IMG/VR virus record: IMGVR_UViG_3300033498_000048
Location: 128,001 to 192,000 of that record
Direction: 5' to 3' (one strand)
Length of the DNA: 64,000 nucleotides
Origin: a virus
Taxonomy: Duplodnaviria > Caudoviricetes
This document shows, in pieces, positions 14,240 to 57,601 of this stretch. Under the pieces are notes generated by a model that was not told the DNA's origin, did not search any database, and was given only the letters and a program-made list of their open reading frames with translations. The position numbers and the translations under genes were made by a program. Within the stretch, counting starts at the first letter, position 1, and each line of letters opens with the position of its first letter.

Positions 14240-14790
14240 AATCAATGAGTTAGCACTTACAGGTTGGTGTTAGTTATATAACTGTTCCAAGTGCTAACTC
14301 ATTGATTCGTATAGTGTAATTAATTGTTATTAACTATCAATAGGTTAGCACTTACAGACATTAAGTAATTATAGGGACGCTTCAAGAGTGTATCATTCAT
14401 TGTCAATTATTAAAATCAATGAGTTAGCACTTGCACTGGTCTTATAATTAACTAACTGTTCCAAGTGCTAACCACTTGTTTAATATACATAAAGTTAATT
14501 AGTATAACTATCAATAGGTTAGCACTTATAGACTGGTATTAGTTATATAACTGTTGCAAGTGCTAACCTATTGATAGTTGGTTGTCCAAACCATTGAGGT
14601 GTAGTTAAAAATTGGAACAAATATGTAACTAATTGTGTTGAATAGCTAAAATCAATGAGTTAGCACTTACAGCGTGGTATTAATTACTTAATTGTTCCAA
14701 GTGCTAACCTATTGATTTAATTGAGAATGGTACAAGGTAATAATATCAACGACTTAGCACTTGGACGGTGTTATTAATTATCCAAGTGCT
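14240..14790. repeat. Inverted-repeat array 1 (68-bp units; IHF-box arms)
   Basis: Complete units start at 14240, 14414, 14509 and 14650, e.g. AATCAATGAGTTAGCACTT-N30-AAGTGCTAACTCATTGATT; partial units at 14335 and 14744. Confidence 0.95.
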
Positions 14791-14824
14791 ATTTTTATGA
14801 GTGGAACATTTCCACAATTGAATA

Positions 14825-18497: not shown

Positions 18498-19676
18498 TCA
18501 AATAAATTCACCTGGATGTGAATACAATACCTTATCTTTAGGGTTCGCTGATGTTGTAACCTCGGCAAATCTAACCCCTTTATTATTCTTTAGGGTTAAT
18601 ATATATTCAAAATTGGAAATTAAATCATAACTACCCTTTATTCCAATTGAGCTTGCAGTTTTTGAGTGACATGATAGTATGAAATTTATACCAACTTTCC
18701 TACCTTCTGTCAATAGTGGAAGTAAAAAGTCAGATAGGTTTTGAATATTTTTAGATACTGTTGTCCACTCGTCAGAAAAATAATAGACTTGTGGAAATTC
18801 ACCTTCAATAACAGCACCACTTCCTAATTGTTCATATCTGTGGTCCATTAAATGTAATGAGTTTTCTAGCTCTTCAGCAATAGCAGGGTAATTCCTACCT
18901 TGTCCTACAACACGCACACGTTCATCCCATTTCCCTGGGGTAGTGTGTGAATCCATAACTACTACTAAATGTCCCTGCCCTAATTTCTGTTTAATTAAGT
19001 GTTGGAATAGTGTTGTTTTACCCGAACCCTGTGAACCAATTATCAATATACGTTTAGAGTCAATTAATTCCTCTAATAATCCAGTCAAGTATCCATTATC
19101 ATCTTTTTTATTGATGCTTATAACCCCAACGTATGGATTTTGATTGGAATTAATTGATTCGTATATTACATCTTCTTCATCGTCATCGTTGTTTCCACAA
19201 TCTAAAACAGTATCATGTTCTTCAACACAATAATCGTCTGGATTTACATCCGTATCACATTCTTCAACGCAATAATCATCTGGACTTACACTTGTTTCGT
19301 GTTGTAATACAGCAATAGATGTCAATTGATATGGAGTGCATAGTTTCTCATTTCTAACTCTACTAATTGTATTGATGTGTATTTCTTTATTTAATTCCAA
19401 TTCATGTAGTTTTTGATACCGATGTAAATCCGTTAGGTTTTTTAAGTATCTAACTAAAAAAAAACAACATGGAACTAATACAAATAGTGCAGATATTAAG
19501 ATTATGATTCCAAGTAACCCGAACACCCCAGAAGTGGCAGTTACATAACTGTCAAGATAATTGTGTGGATATAATGATACAGATATATAATACCCCTTTA
19601 TTGTGATTGCAATTATCGCTGTAACCACGACAACTGCAACATATGATACAATTGTTAATAAATTGTTATTTCCCAT
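18498..19676 (-). CDS. Membrane-anchored FtsK/HerA/TraD-like P-loop ATPase
   Basis: Two N-terminal TM segments, acidic linker with a duplicated PDDYCVEE, Walker A GSQGSGKTT, Walker B YYFSDEW, and EGRKVGI. Confidence 0.7.
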   Translation of the reverse strand: MGNNNLLTIVSYVAVVVVTAIIAITIKGYYISVSLYPHNYLDSYVTATSGVFGLLGIIILISALFVLVPCCFFLVRYLKNLTDLHRYQKLHELELNKEIHINTISRVRNEKLCTPYQLTSIAVLQHETSVSPDDYCVEECDTDVNPDDYCVEEHDTVLDCGNNDDDEEDVIYESINSNQNPYVGVISINKKDDNGYLTGLLEELIDSKRILIIGSQGSGKTTLFQHLIKQKLGQGHLVVVMDSHTTPGKWDERVRVVGQGRNYPAIAEELENSLHLMDHRYEQLGSGAVIEGEFPQVYYFSDEWTTVSKNIQNLSDFLLPLLTEGRKVGINFILSCHSKTASSIGIKGSYDLISNFEYILTLKNNKGVRFAEVTTSANPKDKVLYSHPGEFI

Positions 19677-20090: not shown

Positions 20091-20363
20091 TTATGCTACC
20101 ATTGGACTATCAACTGTTTCGTCCATGTAAGTTAAAAAGAAACTAACCGAATATTCATTTGCAGCAATATGATGTATGTTAATAGTATTTCCAAGTGACC
20201 GTACAAAGTTTAGCAATAATTGCATACTATGTTTAATGGTCACTTTATTTGGATAATCAATTACTACAATTTTTCTACACAATTCATATGCAGAATCATC
20301 AATTTCAATTGTTCCATGTTTACTCCAAAAAGCATTTAATTCTTTGTTTATAGTTTCACTCAT
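20091..20363 (-). CDS. Hypothetical protein
   Basis: Start placed at MSETINKE after a GAGG RBS; the longer track ORF runs into repeat array 2. Confidence 0.6.
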   Translation of the reverse strand: MSETINKELNAFWSKHGTIEIDDSAYELCRKIVVIDYPNKVTIKHSMQLLLNFVRSLGNTINIHHIAANEYSVSFFLTYMDETVDSPMVA

Positions 20364-20387: not shown

Positions 20388-20670
20388 AATCAATGACTTA
20401 GCACTTGGAACAGTTATATAATTAATACCACGATGCAAGTGCTAACCTATTGATTTTGTTATATTGTAATCATTCTCAATTAAATCAATAGGTTAGCATT
20501 TATGAGTATTGGTTAATTAGTAAAGTGTTCCAAGTGCTAACTCATTGATTTATAGTAATTGACGATAATAGCTACTATATCAACAGGTTAGCACTTACAA
20601 CTGTTATATAACTAAGACCAATCTGCAAGTGCTATCTTGTTGATTCTTAATAATTGACAAGATAGCACTT
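20388..20670. repeat. Inverted-repeat array 2
   Basis: Complete units at 20388, 20483 and 20578 (95-bp period, 30-bp cores), plus a partial arm near 20652. Confidence 0.95.
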
Positions 20671-20940
20671 GTGGAACATATTATAACACGCTTAATGATG
20701 TGTTCAGAACCAACACGATTAACCCAGTGATTCCAGATAAACTTATAAATGGGTTCAATCTGAATGCTTCTGTTGGAGTTCGTTTTAATCTTGATGTTGT
20801 GTGGAAGATAAGCATAATAACACAAATACCACAAATAATATTAATAAGCAATTTTAATTCTCCAGTTGATAAGTAATTTATAGTTGTGCATGATACATTA
20901 AATAATAAAAAAGTCAAATAAATATGTTTATATTTTAAAA

Positions 20941-21900
20941 ATGGAGAAAGGTATGTTACAAGGTTTACAAAGTAATGCGTTTTCATATTCACAGTTCGTA
21001 TGGTTCATAGGTGTAGTTGAAGATAGAGATGACCCAGAAAAGACTGGACGACTTAAAGTAAGAATATTTGGCTATCACGATGAAGAAGATAGTGAAAATT
21101 CAAGTAGTGAAATATCAAAAGATTCGTTAGTTTGGGCTGCAACAATGCAACCAACAACCAGTGCAGCATTAAGTGGAATTGGTCATAGTCCAACAGGTAT
21201 TATGGTTGGTACAACGGTTGTTGGTTTTTTTGCAGATGGTCATAGTGCAGAAATGCCTATTATTATGGGTACATTAACAGGTAAACCAACAAAAACAAGT
21301 CAAACAAAGACAAAATATGAGGATGGTGAGTCGGATGCAAATAGGTTAGCTAGGGGAGAAACAAAAGAAACATCTATAGAAAAACAAAACGACTCATTGA
21401 CTGAGGGTGATGGGTGGAAAGAACCAAAATCAGCATATGCTGCAAAATATCCATACAATCATATAATTGAAACAGAGTGTGGACATATACAAGAATTTGA
21501 TGATACCGATGGTGCAGAACGCATACGAATTTACCACAAGAATGGTACATTTTGGGAAATACATCCAGGTGGAGATTATGTTTTAAAAATCCAAGGTACA
21601 CAATACGAAATCATCAAAACAGACTCTAATGTTAAAATAGGGGGTAATTTAAATGTAGAAGTAACTGGTGATGTGAAACTCAAAGTGAACGGTAAAGTTG
21701 ATTGTCAAGTTGTTGGGAACATAACGGTTAAATCAGATGGTGATATAGCAATGACTGCTACTGGAGATTTTGATATTAAATGTGGTGGGAATGCGACAAT
21801 TCAATCTGGTAGTTCTATGAAACTTGAGTCTGGTGGTAATACGTCAATTGATGCTGGAGGTATGTGTAGTATTAATGGGTCAATGGTAACAATAAATTGA
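20941..21900 (+). CDS. 5: Baseplate hub/spike protein, gp5-like (OB fold + beta-helix, no lysozyme domain)
   Basis: WFIGVVEDRDDPEKTGRLKVRIFGYH, V.GFF.DG...P.IMGTL, YPYNH..ETECGH..EFDDT.G.ERI, then 8-residue beta-helix repeats. AATAAATA upstream. Confidence 0.88.
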   Translation: MEKGMLQGLQSNAFSYSQFVWFIGVVEDRDDPEKTGRLKVRIFGYHDEEDSENSSSEISKDSLVWAATMQPTTSAALSGIGHSPTGIMVGTTVVGFFADGHSAEMPIIMGTLTGKPTKTSQTKTKYEDGESDANRLARGETKETSIEKQNDSLTEGDGWKEPKSAYAAKYPYNHIIETECGHIQEFDDTDGAERIRIYHKNGTFWEIHPGGDYVLKIQGTQYEIIKTDSNVKIGGNLNVEVTGDVKLKVNGKVDCQVVGNITVKSDGDIAMTATGDFDIKCGGNATIQSGSSMKLESGGNTSIDAGGMCSINGSMVTIN

Positions 21901-33879: not shown

Positions 33880-34652
33880 TATCAACAGGTTAGCACTTGC
33901 AAACTGGTATTAGTTATATAACTGTTCCAAGTGCTAACTCATTGATTATGTTTAAAAATATAAAACCACCACTAATACCAGTTTGCAAGTGCTAACCTGT
34001 TGATATTGGATGACCATTCTTGTTCAATTATTAAGAATCAATAACATAGCACTTGGAACAGTTTACTAATTAACCAACACCTGTAAGTGCTAACTCATTG
34101 ATTCTTAAACATTCAGTCTAATTAGCACTCGTGGAACTGGTCTTAGTTGTATAATCGTTGCAAGTGCTAACTCATTGATATTATTAGGACACAATCATTC
34201 CGAATTAAATCAATAGGTTAGCATTTACAGATTGGTCTTAGTTATATAACCGTTGATATTTGATTACCATTCTTGTCAATTATGAAGAATCAATGAGTTA
34301 GCACTTGCAACGTGTTAGTAATTACCTAACCGTTATAAATGCTAACTAACTGTTTATTAAGCATTTTCACCATAACCTAACTAAATCAATGAGTTAGCAT
34401 TTATATGGGTGTCTTAATTATATAACGGTTGCAAGTGCTAACCTATTGATTCTTAATACCAACATAAAACTCCAGTATGGACTGATATTAACCATTACTA
34501 ATTCGTTAATATTACCAACGCTTCTAGTCAATTATTTTGAATCAATGACTTAGCACTTGGAACGGTTATATAATTAACTAACTGCTCCAAGTGCTAACTT
34601 ATTGATTTAATTGAGTTTGTGTGATTGTATATGAATCAATGAGTTAGCACTT
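33880..34652. repeat. Inverted-repeat array 3 (largest)
   Basis: Complete units at 33880, 34036, 34288, 34384 and 34540; orphan or degenerate arms at 33987, 34162, 34208 and 34634. Confidence 0.95.
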
Positions 34653-34709
34653 GGAACAACTAACCAATGAACGACTAAATACCACATACCACATAATTGG
34701 ATAACTTGG

Positions 34710-35189
34710 ATGATAATAAATTTTGATACTGTCACGTTGATATTTATATTCATATTAATTGAATATATCATATACAATTGTATTAAGAGTAAGAATGATA
34801 CAATTCCAGACTGGGATAGAAAGTGTATATGGAAAACAAAAGTAAAAAAATTGGTTAAGGTTGTTGATGGTGATACATTTACAGCATTCGTGGATGGACA
34901 TCATCCAATTGACAATAAACCAATTGGAATTAGAATCAGGGGAATAGATACTCCTGAAATGAAATCGACAGACGAACACACTAAAAGACTAGCAATAGAG
35001 GCTAAAGAAGTTGCTATGGGTGTATTAACTAAGTCCAGAAAGATTGTGCTATATAACGTAAGCTTAAATGACAAATATGGAAGGATGTTAGCGACTGTGT
35101 TTTGTGATGGAATAGATTTAGCCAAACTTCTTCTTAATAGAGGACTGGCTAAACCTTATTTTGGAGGAACTAAAGAGGATTGGGATTAA
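34710..35189 (+). CDS. Staphylococcal nuclease-like (SNase/thermonuclease) with N-terminal membrane anchor
   Basis: KVVDGDT, IRIRGIDTPEM, DKYGRMLA, LLNRGLAKPY; hydrophobic first 25 aa. Confidence 0.88.
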   Translation: MIINFDTVTLIFIFILIEYIIYNCIKSKNDTIPDWDRKCIWKTKVKKLVKVVDGDTFTAFVDGHHPIDNKPIGIRIRGIDTPEMKSTDEHTKRLAIEAKEVAMGVLTKSRKIVLYNVSLNDKYGRMLATVFCDGIDLAKLLLNRGLAKPYFGGTKEDWD

Positions 35190-36626: not shown

Positions 36627-38108
36627 TCAATCTATTTCATCTTCAATAACATCAATTGGAACAATACTACTTCCAAATAAATTCGCAGTTGATAATTTAA
36701 AATTGTCAATTACCCATTTTTTAAATGTTGGATTGTCTAATATCGGTGTCCAAAATTCAGAACAATCCGTTTCTTTTAATCTCCATTTTTTAGCTTCAAT
36801 TTCACCTGTATCAAATACTCTTGAATACCAACCTTGGACTGGTTTAATAACAAGCCCTGATTGTAACCCTAACTCAATCAATCCAGTGTAAGTCGATAAT
36901 CCACCATCAAATTTAACTGTAATCGGAATCTTTGATTTCTCTATAACTACTCTTGATTTCTCAACATTTACCACAAAATTATGTCCAATTAATTCTGTTC
37001 CATCTTTTTCTTGTTGTCTACCGATAATGAAAATTGTATCTGCGGAATAATATGGACCCGTATTATGCGTTACAACTCCATTTTCCAAAATATAATGTTC
37101 AGCTTCATAGACTGAAATATCATAAACTGGCAATTTACCAACTATATTAATTGATTTGACAATCCTTCCACTTGTTTTACCAATATACCCATTTGTTGTA
37201 ACTGGAGTATCAATTTTTAAATTTTTTGCCTCTGTCCAACCATCAATTGTTAAAAATGAATGATTGTTTGAACAAGTGACACTATATCCATCATCAAATT
37301 GAATCTCATAACATTCTGGAATGCCAATATGTAACGTATCAGGATTCCATATTGAAGTAACAACTTTATCACCAATCGCAGTTCTAACCTGTTCACCAAC
37401 TTTAATGTTTTGTATTTCTTTAAGAGTGTTGTCCGACATTTGAAGCTTTGTTCCCGACACTAAACAACCTCCACTAACAACTGCTTTTGAATAGATTTCC
37501 TGTGTTTGATAGATGTGTGCCACGATAACACATGGAATGTTCTTTATTTTCATATATGGAGTAATAATTCTAAAAAATGATTTAATCTGTTTAGCTCTGC
37601 TCATATCAGCAACAGATTTTTCATCTTTAGCATCATCAACTTCTTTTTTGGATGCTATATTTCCGATTGAGTCCACAACAAAGATTACTTTATCACCCCG
37701 TTCAATTCCTTCTAATTGGTTTACCATATCGAACTTCAATTCTTCCAAATTCAGGATTGGAATGTGCATTACTCTTCCCATATCAATTTCCAATGAATTG
37801 AAATAGTCTTTAGAAGTACCAAACTCACAATTGTAAAACATTAATACAGACTCAGGATATTTGTCCATGTATTTTTTAGCCATTATCAGGGAAAACATTG
37901 TTTTAAATGATTTCGATGCACCTGCTAATATTGTGATTCCAGGTGAAAAGCCACCATCGACATCTCCCGATAACAAAATATCGAGAGATGGAATCCCAGT
38001 GTGTACGACTTCAGTTTGATTAAAAAACTTAGAGTCCTTTAATATTTCCGTTGCTTTAATTGTTGAATTGCTTTTCAATCTGTCCATCAAGCTTGTTTTT
38101 GTAGCCAT
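36627..38108 (-). CDS. uvsX: UvsX RecA-like recombinase containing a mini-intein
   Basis: GASKSFKT, VVDSIGN.ASKKE, KSVADMSRAK, SGG|intein|TGPYYSAD. Confidence 0.95.
   Translation of the reverse strand: MATKTSLMDRLKSNSTIKATEILKDSKFFNQTEVVHTGIPSLDILLSGDVDGGFSPGITILAGASKSFKTMFSLIMAKKYMDKYPESVLMFYNCEFGTSKDYFNSLEIDMGRVMHIPILNLEELKFDMVNQLEGIERGDKVIFVVDSIGNIASKKEVDDAKDEKSVADMSRAKQIKSFFRIITPYMKIKNIPCVIVAHIYQTQEIYSKAVVSGGCLVSGTKLQMSDNTLKEIQNIKVGEQVRTAIGDKVVTSIWNPDTLHIGIPECYEIQFDDGYSVTCSNNHSFLTIDGWTEAKNLKIDTPVTTNGYIGKTSGRIVKSINIVGKLPVYDISVYEAEHYILENGVVTHNTGPYYSADTIFIIGRQQEKDGTELIGHNFVVNVEKSRVVIEKSKIPITVKFDGGLSTYTGLIELGLQSGLVIKPVQGWYSRVFDTGEIEAKKWRLKETDCSEFWTPILDNPTFKKWVIDNFKLSTANLFGSSIVPIDVIEDEID
37062..37466 (-). 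mobile_element. Cis mini-intein in UvsX (135 aa, Cys1...His-Asn, Thr+1)
   Basis: CLVSGT (block A), TCSNNH (block B), VYDISV...VTHN|T (blocks F/G); no endonuclease domain. Confidence 0.92.
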
Positions 38109-44327: not shown

Positions 44328-44715
44328 CCTCTAACAATAATGAGTCCAAATAGGACTCATGTTGTTTTAATATTGGCACAACTTCTTTTGCTTTAGTGTA
44401 TGAATAACCATACACTCGCTGTATTTTATCAATTAATACTGTATCGTCAATATTTTTATTCCACTTGGAATACCGTTTTCGTTTTGGTATAACATGGAAT
44501 AAAAATGTGTATTGCATTTGAATGTCCATTTCAAATCTGATATTCAATTCATTCACAAGTAAAGCCGTATCTCGATATTGAGATAGTGCTTTATTAATCA
44601 TAAATGGATTATACTCAGCAGTTAATTGTTCTTCAATTAATTCTGTTTTTCCATTTGTGATATTGTTCACAATATCAAATAAACCTAAAGATGGTTGGTT
44701 GTCCAATGTACTCAT
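44299..44715 (-). CDS. 62: Clamp loader small subunit gp62
   Basis: YNPFMINKALSQ..DT...VNELN, KRKRYSKW, YGYS..KA.EV. Confidence 0.9.
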   Translation of the reverse strand: MSTLDNQPSLGLFDIVNNITNGKTELIEEQLTAEYNPFMINKALSQYRDTALLVNELNIRFEMDIQMQYTFLFHVIPKRKRYSKWNKNIDDTVLIDKIQRVYGYSYTKAKEVVPILKQHESYLDSLLLEGGKVNKKIK

Positions 44716-46106
44716 TTGAACTCCAAATCCCGCATTAACTCGGTTAGCATTGCAACTATATTCAATTCTTTATCGGAAACAAAGTTTGACTTATAATCAT
44801 AATCTGATAACGTTAGTACCAATTGTGGTAACGAACTTGGAATAACATAATCTGGGGCTTTAAGATAAATTGCTCTTGATAATGTCATTTGGGAATTGTC
44901 TAAATTACTAACAACCCATTTTCTAACCTCGTTCCATTTACTGGGGTCTCTTAAATATGTAAACAACTCATCAATATTAGCATCTGATAAACTTGTTAAT
45001 ACGAGTTCGTCCAACCTGTTATTGACCATTGATAATTGTTGTAACGTTGTTGTGATTTTTCGCATATCTGGAAAATGCGTTGTTATTACCTTCGCAACAA
45101 CATTCCTATCATATTCAACTCCCTCATGGTCTAATATTTCTAGCATTCTTTTTTCAAGTGGGAGTATCACTTCCATTTTTTCAGCTTTAGTAAGTGCAAA
45201 GTCAACAACTGCACACCTACTTTTTAATGGACCCATAATTCTATTGCTAAAATTGGCAGTCAATATAAACCTACAGTTTGCACTATAGGTTTCCATAAAG
45301 TTTCTTAATGCAGGTTGTGTGCTATTACAATTGTGAGCTACTACACCATTTTCCAAAATGAAATTGTGATTATCATCATTAGTAGTCAAATCATAAACTG
45401 GTAACATTCCCAATGATTCCATCGACACAATGGTTTTTGTTTTTCCATTGGAATCAACAAGCTTATCACCAATTTTGATACCATCCTTTTTTTCTGATAC
45501 TCCACAATATCCATTTATTGATTCAATGGTGTAAAAAGGATGGTCTTTTGTGCAATACATTCTTGAATAATCATCAAATTGTACAATGTACACTTCGCCT
45601 ATTCCCGACTTGAATACGAATGCTTCTGCTGTGTATTGTTCACCTGTTGTTGTGTTATATGATAATATATTAACTGTTTTATCATAAATTGAATCAAATG
45701 ACTTTAATTCTGGAACACCATCTATATTCACAGTGTAAATATGTTGGTTTCCAGCAAAACAATTTAAATAATCGGCTTCATCTAATAATACTACTTTATA
45801 TCCACCTCTATTCTTCATACTAACGGTGCTAGCATAACGTTCAATCGTAGTTCGGAGCGTATCAATGTTCCCATCTTTCGAGGCATTGATTTCCAGTAAG
45901 TCAATGCCCATATCACTACACAACGCTCTTGGAATTGTGGTTTTTCCAACACCCTGATAACCAGTGAACAACATATTTGTTATTTGTCCACTGTCAATAA
46001 TAGCTTGAAAATAGTTTTTTAATCTCGATGGTAAAATAACATTAGCCATCGTTCTTGGACGAAACTTCTCAGCCCAAAGTGGTTGATTCGGAGTAATATC
46101 CAACAT
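44712..46106 (-). CDS. 44: Clamp loader large subunit gp44 containing a mini-intein
   Basis: WAEKFRP, GYQGVGKTT, LDEADYLN|intein|CNSTQPALR, LKSRC, FPDMRK. Confidence 0.95.
   Translation of the reverse strand: MLDITPNQPLWAEKFRPRTMANVILPSRLKNYFQAIIDSGQITNMLFTGYQGVGKTTIPRALCSDMGIDLLEINASKDGNIDTLRTTIERYASTVSMKNRGGYKVVLLDEADYLNCFAGNQHIYTVNIDGVPELKSFDSIYDKTVNILSYNTTTGEQYTAEAFVFKSGIGEVYIVQFDDYSRMYCTKDHPFYTIESINGYCGVSEKKDGIKIGDKLVDSNGKTKTIVSMESLGMLPVYDLTTNDDNHNFILENGVVAHNCNSTQPALRNFMETYSANCRFILTANFSNRIMGPLKSRCAVVDFALTKAEKMEVILPLEKRMLEILDHEGVEYDRNVVAKVITTHFPDMRKITTTLQQLSMVNNRLDELVLTSLSDANIDELFTYLRDPSKWNEVRKWVVSNLDNSQMTLSRAIYLKAPDYVIPSSLPQLVLTLSDYDYKSNFVSDKELNIVAMLTELMRDLEFK
45330..45761 (-). mobile_element. 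Cis mini-intein in gp44 (144 aa, Cys1...His-Asn, Cys+1)
   Basis: CFAGNQ (block A), CTKDHP (block B), VYDLT...VAHN|C; no endonuclease domain. Confidence 0.92.
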
Positions 46107-51598: not shown

Positions 51599-52187
51599 AA
51601 TCAATAGGTTAGCACTTGATACCGTTAGGTAATTAATATATCGTTCCAAGTGCTAACCAGTTGATATTTGATTACATTCTTGTCAATTATTAAGAATCAA
51701 TGAGTTAGCACTTACATTGGTCTATTAATTATATAACAGTTACAACTGCTAACCTATTGATATTATTAATACTACATCACATCCAATTAAATCAATGACT
51801 TAGCACTTACAACGGTTATATAATTAATAGACCAATGCAAGTGCTAAGTCATTGATTCTTGATAACCGATATTATGTCCAACCAAGTGTTAGCTATAACT
51901 GTCAATTAAATATAAATCAATAAGTTAGCATTTGGAACAGTCTTATAATTAGTAAATGGTATCAAGTGCTAAGTCACTTGACTTAAAATGAATTAGACAA
52001 CTTCACTATTGGTTCTAAAATGATTAGAGCATTACCAATCATTCTCAATTTTAACCGATTTACCGTTGGTACTAAGAATCAATGACTTAGCACTTGCATT
52101 GGTCTGTTAATTATATAACCGTTGTAAGTGCTAACCTATTGATTTTTATTCACTGTCAATTAAATATAAATCAATAAGTTAGCATTT
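51599..52187. repeat. Inverted-repeat array 4
   Basis: Complete units at 51599, 51695, 51790, 51915 and 52077; orphan arm at 52169; a roughly 48-bp direct repeat at about 51897 and 52152. Confidence 0.95.
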
Positions 52188-52223
52188 GGAACAGTCTTAC
52201 TAATTAACCTTATGCTAATCACA

Positions 52224-52252
52224 TTGACTATTTTTTGATTCGATAATATAAT
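52224..52252 (+). promoter_or_regulatory. Sigma70-like promoter TTGACT-17-TATAAT
   Basis: Immediately after array 4, upstream of uvsY. Confidence 0.7.
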
Positions 52253-52279: not shown

Positions 52280-52705
52280 ATGGAATTGGAACAAATACAA
52301 ACCGAAATACAACTTGATAGTGTATTAAATGAAACTAAGCTTGATACTGAAAGTTTAAAGATTCCTATGTTACATTCAAAATGGTACAACTATTTAATAT
52401 TTGAAGCTCAGACATTAAAAAGGGTTGAACGAACATTTAACAAAGTAAAAAAGGCTAGAATTGAATATTATTTAGGGAAAGCTCCAGATGAAGTATATAA
52501 AGAACACCCTAAACCATACAATGTGTTAAAACAGGATTTAGAGTTGTATTTGAGTGCTGATGATGAATATCAAGTTCAACAAGAGTTGATAACTAACCAA
52601 CAAATCAAAATTGATTTAATTGAGCAGTTTTTAAAGCAAGTTTCGCAGCGTTCATTTAATATAAAAAACGCAATAGATTTTATGAAGTTTAAAAGTGGAT
52701 TGTGA
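52280..52705 (+). CDS. uvsY: Recombination mediator UvsY
   Basis: ESLKIPMLHSKW, EYYLGKA...VY, YL.AD, R.FNIKNAIDF.KFKSG. Confidence 0.92.
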   Translation: MELEQIQTEIQLDSVLNETKLDTESLKIPMLHSKWYNYLIFEAQTLKRVERTFNKVKKARIEYYLGKAPDEVYKEHPKPYNVLKQDLELYLSADDEYQVQQELITNQQIKIDLIEQFLKQVSQRSFNIKNAIDFMKFKSGL

Positions 52706-56674: not shown

Positions 56675-56892
56675 TGTCAACAAGTTAGCACTTAGGACAC
56701 ATTAAGTTATTCATTGTCAATTATTATAAATCAATAGGTTAGCACTTACATGGGTGTATTAATTATATAACTGTTCCAAGTGCTAACCTATTGATAGTGT
56801 TATCATTCATTATCAATTATTATAAATCAACAAGTTAGCACTTGGAACGTGTTAGTAATTACTTAATGAGTGTAAGTGCTAAGTCATTGATT
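56675..56892. repeat. Inverted-repeat array 5
   Basis: Complete units at 56729 and 56825 (96-bp period); partial arm at 56675. Confidence 0.93.
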
Positions 56893-56896
56893 GTTA

Positions 56897-57601
56897 CTAC
56901 TTGCTTAATTTATATATTCCATTAACAAGTGCTAATACTAACTTTACATTTGTAGACATGGGCCAAGGGAAAGTAAGTCCAGTTAATTTACCAGTAGCAA
57001 ATAACAACAGCATTCGAGTTCCTTCTGGTCCACCAAATAATGTTGGTAAATCATAATCACCCTTTACTGCTTTGAGTGCAGATGATAAATCCATATCATA
57101 ATTTGCGTTACCAGTTGATGTACCACCATCATCAAGGAACATCCAAAGCAATAAGCCACCAACAACAACCCCACCAACTTTTTTCAGTGCTGGATGCTTA
57201 ACTAAAAAATCTTGTAATTTTTTTAATTCATTATCTGTCCATTTAACAACTTTTGTTGACGCAACATAATCAGCAATCTTTAATTGTAAATCGGTATATA
57301 ATTGGAATCCAGCTTTTAATTTACTGTATAACATACCAAGACTAAATTTGATTTCCCTAAAAAACTCAAATATTTTTTTGTTTTTACAGGCAACTAATAA
57401 ATCTTGAACACGAGTCTTGGAAATCTGTGCCAATTCTACAAAAAACCAATATTTTTCTTTAATCGCGTCCGTCAATTTAACAAGCTCAAACTCAGTTAAA
57501 AGTTTACCGTTTTCCATCTCAAGCAATCTAATCGCTTCAGAATATGACGCAAAATCTTGGTCATATTCATATTGTTCTAGGAACATCTCAAATGTTAGCA
57601 T
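56897..57601 (-). CDS. Late hypothetical protein, probable head-internal protein
   Basis: TATAAATA at 57626-57633; N-terminus MLTFEMFLE. Confidence 0.65.
   Translation of the reverse strand: MLTFEMFLEQYEYDQDFASYSEAIRLLEMENGKLLTEFELVKLTDAIKEKYWFFVELAQISKTRVQDLLVACKNKKIFEFFREIKFSLGMLYSKLKAGFQLYTDLQLKIADYVASTKVVKWTDNELKKLQDFLVKHPALKKVGGVVVGGLLLWMFLDDGGTSTGNANYDMDLSSALKAVKGDYDLPTLFGGPEGTRMLLLFATGKLTGLTFPWPMSTNVKLVLALVNGIYKLSK

Follow-up and report, generated by a model that had tools for sequence, protein, structure and literature searches.

In enterobacteria, intergenic palindromes form the mosaic REP/BIME arrays, which have few types of linker and for which both protein roles (IHF, gyrase) and RNA roles are known. 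BIMEs are chromosomal, with REPs of about 35 bp in alternating orientation. The linker is where BIME-1 (RIP/RIB) has its IHF site, and REPs are linked to RAYT transposases. T4-type phages carry dispersed intergenic repeats of their own, the PeSL and PmSL cassettes of the variable early regions (PMC2839356, PMC4122927). In a PeSL, a palindromic element lies just upstream of a sigma-70-type early promoter that faces the next gene. Its short stem-loop, of which each gene has one, follows the direction of transcription and works as an intrinsic terminator, with a G+C-rich stem and a trailing T-run (PMC2839356, PMC4122927). Degraded PeSL copies that keep only the -35 box are found near intact ones (PMC4122927). 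Here we describe a phage genome in which 130 copies of a 68-bp palindromic unit, 95 of them full length and 35 truncated, are distributed over 42 loci (nhmmer profile), in many cases as tandem arrays with a sharp 95-bp period that is best explained by the size of a tandemly amplified module.

The genome, an IMG/VR virus record of 305,782 bp, has a G+C content of 31% and carries direct terminal repeats; the window is the whole stretch of 64,000 nucleotides that was analyzed, bases 128001-192000 of that record. T4-type replication and recombination genes are encoded in the window (topoisomerase II subunits, a gp41-like helicase, UvsX, UvsY and DNA polymerase), together with a clamp loader, a gp46-like nuclease and a gp5 baseplate hub. 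Given this gene set, the source genome is that of an uncultured T4-like jumbo phage of ~306 kb. In the UvsX-like ORF (493 aa, window 36627-38108) and likewise in the clamp-loader ORF (464 aa, window 44712-46106), the PHROG family was matched in two separated stretches, and the unmatched middles of ~60-145 aa may be insertions, for example, inteins or extra domains. A 392-aa ORF at window 18498-19676, between the topoisomerase genes and the array at 20388, gave a weak match to the terminase large subunit (residues 206-334, E = 2.9e-7).

The array at 20388 consists of three units and two linkers between two minus-strand genes, as follows.

20091..20363, minus strand: downstream gene, 90 aa, no Pfam family
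20388..20455: unit 1, a full 68-bp palindrome, core polarity minus (nhmmer 68.6 bits, minus strand)
20456..20482, minus strand: linker 1, 27 bp, with a TAATTGAG box abutting unit 2; shares 93% identity with a linker at genome 296895
20483..20550, no strand assigned: unit 2, full length; its arms are degenerate and its polarity is ambiguous (nhmmer 45-46 bits on both strands)
20551..20577, plus strand: linker 2, 27 bp, with a TTGACG box pointing away from unit 2
20578..20645: unit 3, full length, core polarity minus (nhmmer 59.1 bits)
20654..20671, plus strand: outward-facing TTGACA box followed by an orphan arm (ATAGCACTTG)
20681..20992, minus strand: upstream gene, 103 aa, no Pfam family, with its stop codon 35 bp from unit 3

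The TTGACA box and orphan arm at 20654..20671 are the remnant of a fourth module. At the other end of the array, 24 bp separate unit 1 from the start codon of the next gene downstream, on the minus strand. Because this leaves no room for a promoter between unit 1 and gene 20091..20363, the mRNA of that gene must either start in the array or cross it.

The window holds four more arrays, two of them with promoters close by.

14240..14811: array of 6 units (2 truncated) with spacings of 95, 79, 95, 141 and 94 bp, beginning 13 bp past the stop codon of a topoisomerase II gene
14198-14170, minus strand: consensus sigma-70-type promoter TTGACA-N17-TATAAT (12/12), on the gene-proximal side of array 14240..14811
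33880..34701: array between divergent genes, with 9 units, of which 3 are truncated and one has a spacer of 31 bp; spacings of 58, 98, 76, 96, 80, 96, 156 and 94 bp
51599..52236: array of 6 units of mixed polarity, with spacings of 96, 95, 125, 162 and 92 bp
52224..52252, plus strand: promoter TTGACT-N17-TATAAT at the end of array 51599..52236, 28 bp upstream of uvsY (52280-52705)
56675..56892: array of three units, one of them truncated, with spacings of 54 and 96 bp; 4 bp separate its end from the stop codon of gene 56897-57601 on the minus strand

In T4, the region upstream of uvsY is a replication origin (oriF). A staphylococcal-nuclease-like gene (SNase, E = 4e-12; window 34710-35189) begins 8 bp past the nine-unit array. 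No DNA-binding Pfam family was found among the genes that flank the arrays of the window.

The nhmmer profile that located the units was made from 72 copies chosen by a strict definition. Over its 68 bp, the unit forms an imperfect palindrome, AATCAAT-N3-TTAGCACTT-N30-AAGTGCTAA-N3-ATTGATT, laid out as a 19-bp arm, 30 bp and a second 19-bp arm, with a strongly conserved TAATTA exactly at its center. Its 30-bp core is polar, and oriented copies read roughly ...TGGT.TTAATTATATAAC.GTTC... across it. The edges are sharp, with information content dropping to ~0 from the first base outside each end of the 68 bp. The arm word TTAGCACTTG, with one mismatch at most, was found 53 times in the window against 4.4 expected, and 242 times genome-wide against 14 for its reversed control.

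The inner layout is close to rigid. Throughout the genome, the arm-to-arm distance has its modal value in 72 of 83 close arm pairs, and 85 of the 95 full-length units are free of indels. The initial annotation had put all complete cores at exactly 30 bp, which is nearly right for the full units but not exact, the two exceptions in the window being the unit at 34112, with a spacer of 31 bp, and the unit at 14744, which is short by 9 bp. Its wider statement that length is held more strictly than sequence is true of this inner spacer, where the 19-30-19 geometry is conserved far more tightly than the bases of the 30-bp stretch. The inner geometry looks selected, as judged from one genome. Base-specific conservation of three blocks in each half, combined with the fixed length, points to a sequence-specific protein complex of fixed span. 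With no sign of an RNA role, and with strict geometry and sharp edges, the best reading is that the unit is a putative DNA-level docking site for such a complex.

Spacing between units is looser. Among neighbors less than 250 bp apart in the genome, 44 of 85 spacings are 93-96 bp and the others are scattered over a broad tail that reaches 182 bp; when both neighbors are full length, 30 of 51 pairs are spaced 92-96 bp. There are minor clusters at 76-84 bp, mostly adjoining truncated units, and at 100-106 bp. The five arrays of the window provide 22 neighbor spacings, half of which (11/22) are 94-96 bp; the remaining values are 54, 58, 76, 79, 80, 92, 98, 125, 141, 156 and 162 bp. The ten start-to-start distances from which phasing at 94-96 bp had been proposed were all reproduced by the nhmmer model of the unit. 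The sharp mode is thus real, in the window as in the genome-wide tabulation, but the listed distances were selective and leave out the scatter.

The linkers bear on the origin of this mode. Position by position, their information content is close to zero. Individual linkers are nonetheless related, with a mean nearest-neighbor identity among the 46 modal linkers of 0.75, compared with 0.58 in shuffles. About 33 of the modal linkers have a clear relative, often in a distant array (13878/126953, 96%; 148388/296895, 93%), and about a dozen have none that is recognizable, so that linker length may itself be under some real constraint. Some 28 high-identity matches between arrays continue from a unit into one linker. 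The 26-bp linkers at genome positions 67871 and 67965 are identical and belong to a 166-bp repeat whose copies are offset by 94 bp (67871-68129); this region, outside the window, is a recent tandem duplication of one unit plus linker.

Many linkers contain an outward-facing -35-like box that is tied to one flanking unit. The box lies 8-9 nt from the unit edge when it reads TTGACA and 3 nt from the edge when it reads TTGAG or TTGAT, so that the two types are 5 bp apart relative to the unit while total linker length stays constant (26-28 bp). This constancy despite the 5-bp offset hints at a constraint on total length. The linkers were also considered as promoters and rejected as such: the TTGACA box is 14 nt from the next unit, the would-be -10 (ATCAAT) is poor, and the region has 45 promoter-like matches against a shuffle expectation of 46.6.

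Neighboring units share core polarity more often than they differ in it (25 versus 9, p = 0.009), and a unit has its closest relative in its own array 9 times, compared with 2.4 expected. On average, however, neighbors are no more alike than units of different arrays (0.751 versus 0.750), and most arrays are therefore either old or homogenized across the genome. Half of the linkers in such arrays are still 25-28 bp long. Length changes, counted as indel-bearing copies, amount to ~0.020 per bp in linkers and 0.0016-0.0062 per bp in units, a rate 3-12 times higher in the linker, and so it is the linker whose length can vary freely. The linkers are also near substitution saturation. Using a general value for the ratio of indels to substitutions, we estimate roughly that the sharp mode and broad tail fit a founder module of 95 bp in which each linker has undergone ~1-2 indel events.

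We propose that the repeated entity is a module of ~95 bp, made up of the 68-bp dyad-symmetric unit and a fast-evolving linker of ~27 bp that often carries an outward-facing -35-like box (TTGACA, TTGAG or TTGAT) adjoining one flanking unit. The 94-96-bp period would then mainly be the size of this module. Arrays would have expanded through unequal crossing-over between adjacent units, with the palindromic arms allowing cores to flip, and the linkers would afterwards have decayed by substitutions and indels, leaving a sharp mode with a broad tail.

Where the units lie suggests what they might do. Nearly all are intergenic (124/130). Arrays start a few to ~35 bp from the stop codon of the upstream gene, and the largest ones (5-11 units) are found between divergent genes. 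At 13 of the 42 loci there is a near-consensus TTGACA-N17-TATAAT promoter (>=10/12, that is, at least 10 of 12 positions) on the gene-proximal side; the array at 20388, with its 24 bp between unit 1 and the start codon, has no promoter adjoining the unit. It is one of 11 arrays with a unit at <35 bp from the next start codon, and since units in that position must be transcribed, they cannot be absolute transcription blocks. Terminator-like hairpins with a T-run number 28 in 306 kb, compared with 12-20 in block shuffles. Seven of them are intergenic, five just after the end of a gene, and ~5-7 in the 306 kb are credible. The phage seems to manage almost without intrinsic terminators. Apart from one chance match, none of the terminator-like sites coincides with a unit. 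In a relative with a 64% identical topoisomerase (L102), a classical hairpin with a T-run and a GTTTAC-type promoter follow the topoisomerase gene, at the position that six units and a promoter occupy in our phage. In another relative (L104:5866-8611; topoisomerase 59% identical), two DnaJ-domain proteins are encoded just downstream of the topoisomerase genes.

The arrays thus occupy the gap that separates the stop codon of a transcription unit from the promoter that follows, or else they lie between divergent genes. This position, the terminator and promoter at the matching site in the relative and the near-lack of intrinsic terminators all suggest that the arrays most likely serve early and middle gene regions as putative boundary elements, or regulatory ones, to which protein binds. 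For the explanation as a whole, in which modules are inherited in tandem and units serve as protein-bound boundary elements, we see about as much reason for belief as for doubt. A more specific version strikes us as doubtful: the 68-bp units and 27-bp linkers would form a scaffold on which a putative protein polymerizes in helical register, and the resulting filament would insulate transcription units in place of intrinsic terminators. The filament protein would be encoded by the phage or would be a host factor that reads the IHF- or CIRCE-like arms.

The initial annotation had explained the period differently, as in-phase bending into a superstructure of the att/cos or oriC type. In that case the 95-bp period itself would be selected, and proteins bound to the units, together with IHF-type bends in the arms, would stack in register in a defined nucleoprotein superstructure. 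Its arithmetic is correct, 95 / 10.5 being 9.05 turns, and it gains from the sharpness of the mode, from linkers that keep 25-28 bp with almost no position-specific information, from a second spacing cluster at 102-106 bp, near ten turns, and from arm centers that, again by arithmetic, make up a nearly even lattice of 49 and 46 bp. It gains, too, from the IHF consensus WATCAANNNNTTR, which 143 of 190 arms match, as a string and to an E. coli consensus that may not be the host's; 163 of the 221 matches in the genome fall inside units, and the 58 outside are at chance level (53 ± 7). The spacings off the mode, however, have no 10.5-bp periodicity, whether one takes the 21 full-full spacings (Rayleigh R = 0.22, p = 0.35) or all 39 (Rayleigh R = 0.14, p = 0.46). 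None of the periods between 9.5 and 15 bp is conspicuous among them, and the 76-84 bp cluster is out of phase. Nor do the arrays have AA/TT phasing of 10-11 bp, for which the power was below that of shuffled controls, and the phage genome has no gene of the HU/IHF family (Bac_DNA_binding). Linkers are related in sequence, and the founder module of the rough estimate above, 95 bp long and with roughly 1-2 indels in each linker, would give the same distribution. Finally, the loci number 42 and are dispersed, which does not resemble a single att, cos or ori complex. Selection of the period for helical phase gains no support from these findings, and we regard it as unlikely. Neighbors on the same helical face (9.05 turns) may aid cooperative binding, an effect that the data can be explained without. 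More generally, a sharp period near whole helical turns is no evidence of phasing when a repeat grows by module copying.

The unit itself can also be read in other ways. Every unit folds into a stem of ~19 bp (-14 to -28 kcal/mol, z -4 to -8.6), as any palindrome does if transcribed, and many must be transcribed, lying right after stop codons or, in the 11 arrays mentioned, close to a start codon. As RNA hairpins, they would be mRNA stabilizers, RNase III-type processing sites or noncanonical terminators, comparable to REP and PeSL elements, in a genome with very few intrinsic terminators. Yet variable mirror columns of the unit pair no more than in shuffles, those of the core pair less often (z down to -6.6), and in co-directional gene contexts G.U is not favored over A.C on the transcribed strand (51 versus 43 mismatches, p = 0.47). 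Core polarity is independent of transcription direction (same in 20 cases, opposite in 23), no T-run follows the stem, and an Rfam scan of the window gave no match. A plain stem, moreover, does not need strong base-specific conservation of the arms, and no transcript need cross the largest arrays, between divergent genes; we find an RNA function very unlikely. It is quite unlikely, too, that the units are selfish miniature mobile DNA of the MITE or REPIN kind, occupying nonessential intergenic space and functionless for the phage. The 130 copies at 42 loci with terminal inverted arms, the 35 truncated copies, the concentration of the largest arrays in divergent intergenic regions, where insertions are harmless, and the absence of the family from relatives with 59-65% identical topoisomerases would fit such an origin. 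But there are no target-site duplications (flanking direct repeats are at control level), the phage lacks a RAYT/Y1 transposase (PF01797), a transposase acting on the ends needs neither the conserved central TAATTA nor the conserved spacer length, and the units are regularly placed relative to stop codons and promoters. The CIRCE operator of HrcA is TTAGCACTC-N9-GAGTGCTAA, and the arm word TTAGCACTT agrees at 8/9 positions with what we take to be its half-site, TTAGCACTC. Hundreds of such half-sites might act as a decoy for this host heat-shock repressor, titrating HrcA and derepressing chaperones for capsid folding. The difference in spacer, 30 - 9 = 21 bp, is two helical turns and would give the half-sites the same rotation as in CIRCE, which is arithmetic and not evidence. 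Since no copy anywhere in the genome has the 9-bp spacer of CIRCE, HrcA domains (PF01628, PF03444) are absent from the phage and the ATCAAT and TAATTA blocks have no counterpart in CIRCE, we find a decoy scarcely credible.

We searched for the unit outside this genome. In a phage collection, blastn of an array and megablast of 13 kb of genes returned only distant T4-like matches (67-69%). The arm-N30-arm pattern had 0 matches in IMG/VR, and the single-arm pattern there gave only loci with one match, consistent with chance. A metagenome scan for arm-N30-arm yielded 28 loci, none of which is the phage unit, and a single-protein search of viral contigs found no relative. The unit is absent from relatives L102-L108, whose topoisomerase proteins are 59-65% identical. 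The closest relative by topoisomerase protein (71%) has a 500-bp gap at the position that matches the array. The absence of the family from the viral and metagenomic contigs searched and from the 59-65% relatives indicates that it is probably young or lineage-specific. Among DNA sequencing runs, a microbial-mat metagenome represents the genome best, and no RNA run is listed as containing it. In two freshwater sequencing runs, of four DNA runs, a ~96% relative, seen as contigs of ~200 nt that break at repeats, has raised depth over the arrays.

An arm pair with the same spacer, TTAGCACTT-N30-AAGTGCTAA with TATTAATT near the center, recurs in metagenome contigs L112, L115, L118, L119, L124 and L129, and the site is also present in L121, L127 and L136; these contigs have 37-42% G+C. 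At the two loci examined (L115 and L136), it lies between divergent genes and adjoins an AAA-ATPase-like gene; the proteins adjoining it there belong to no informative family, and L115 has a NUMOD3-containing ORF nearby. The flanks of this metagenomic site are unrelated to the phage unit. Its resemblance may be a coincidence involving a single conserved site, or it may be distantly related to the arm pair.

Compared with described systems, the arrays resemble lambda attP/cos and oriC in that an IHF-like consensus is present and several sites for proteins are set at fixed distances. Those are single loci with mixed site types and known partners, however, whereas the phage has one site type at 42 loci, and its off-mode spacings are not helically phased. 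With CIRCE the unit shares the inverted repeat and a half-site identical at 8/9 positions, but its spacer is 30 bp instead of 9 bp, it has the additional ATCAAT and TAATTA blocks, and its ~130 copies are not tied to chaperone genes in a phage that has no HrcA. The likeness to REP/BIME extends to palindromic units in intergenic arrays, few linker types and an IHF consensus string. In the phage, this string, which is a string match only, sits in the palindrome arms and not in the linker, and there is no RAYT.

The PeSL cassettes, at which close relatives show indel or shuffling breakpoints, are similar in being dispersed intergenic repeats, in combining a palindrome with a sigma-70-type promoter, as at 13 of the phage arrays, and in their degraded -35-only copies, which resemble the linker boxes of the phage. 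The phage element differs in being a 68-bp dyad with a 30-bp polar core, without a T-run and without a tie to the direction of transcription. It also occurs in tandem, with as many as 11 units to an array and a modal period of 95 bp, often with no promoter before the next gene, as at 20388. The phage arrays fill the niche of the PeSL cassettes but fail their defining features, namely, the terminator, the fixed orientation and the single copy per gene. They occupy the place of the terminator-promoter cassettes that are usual in T4-type phages. If the unit is a docking site, the arrays would amount to a genome-wide DNA-protein system of about 130 sites, and thus to a new way for large phages to mark off transcription units or drive modular shuffling.
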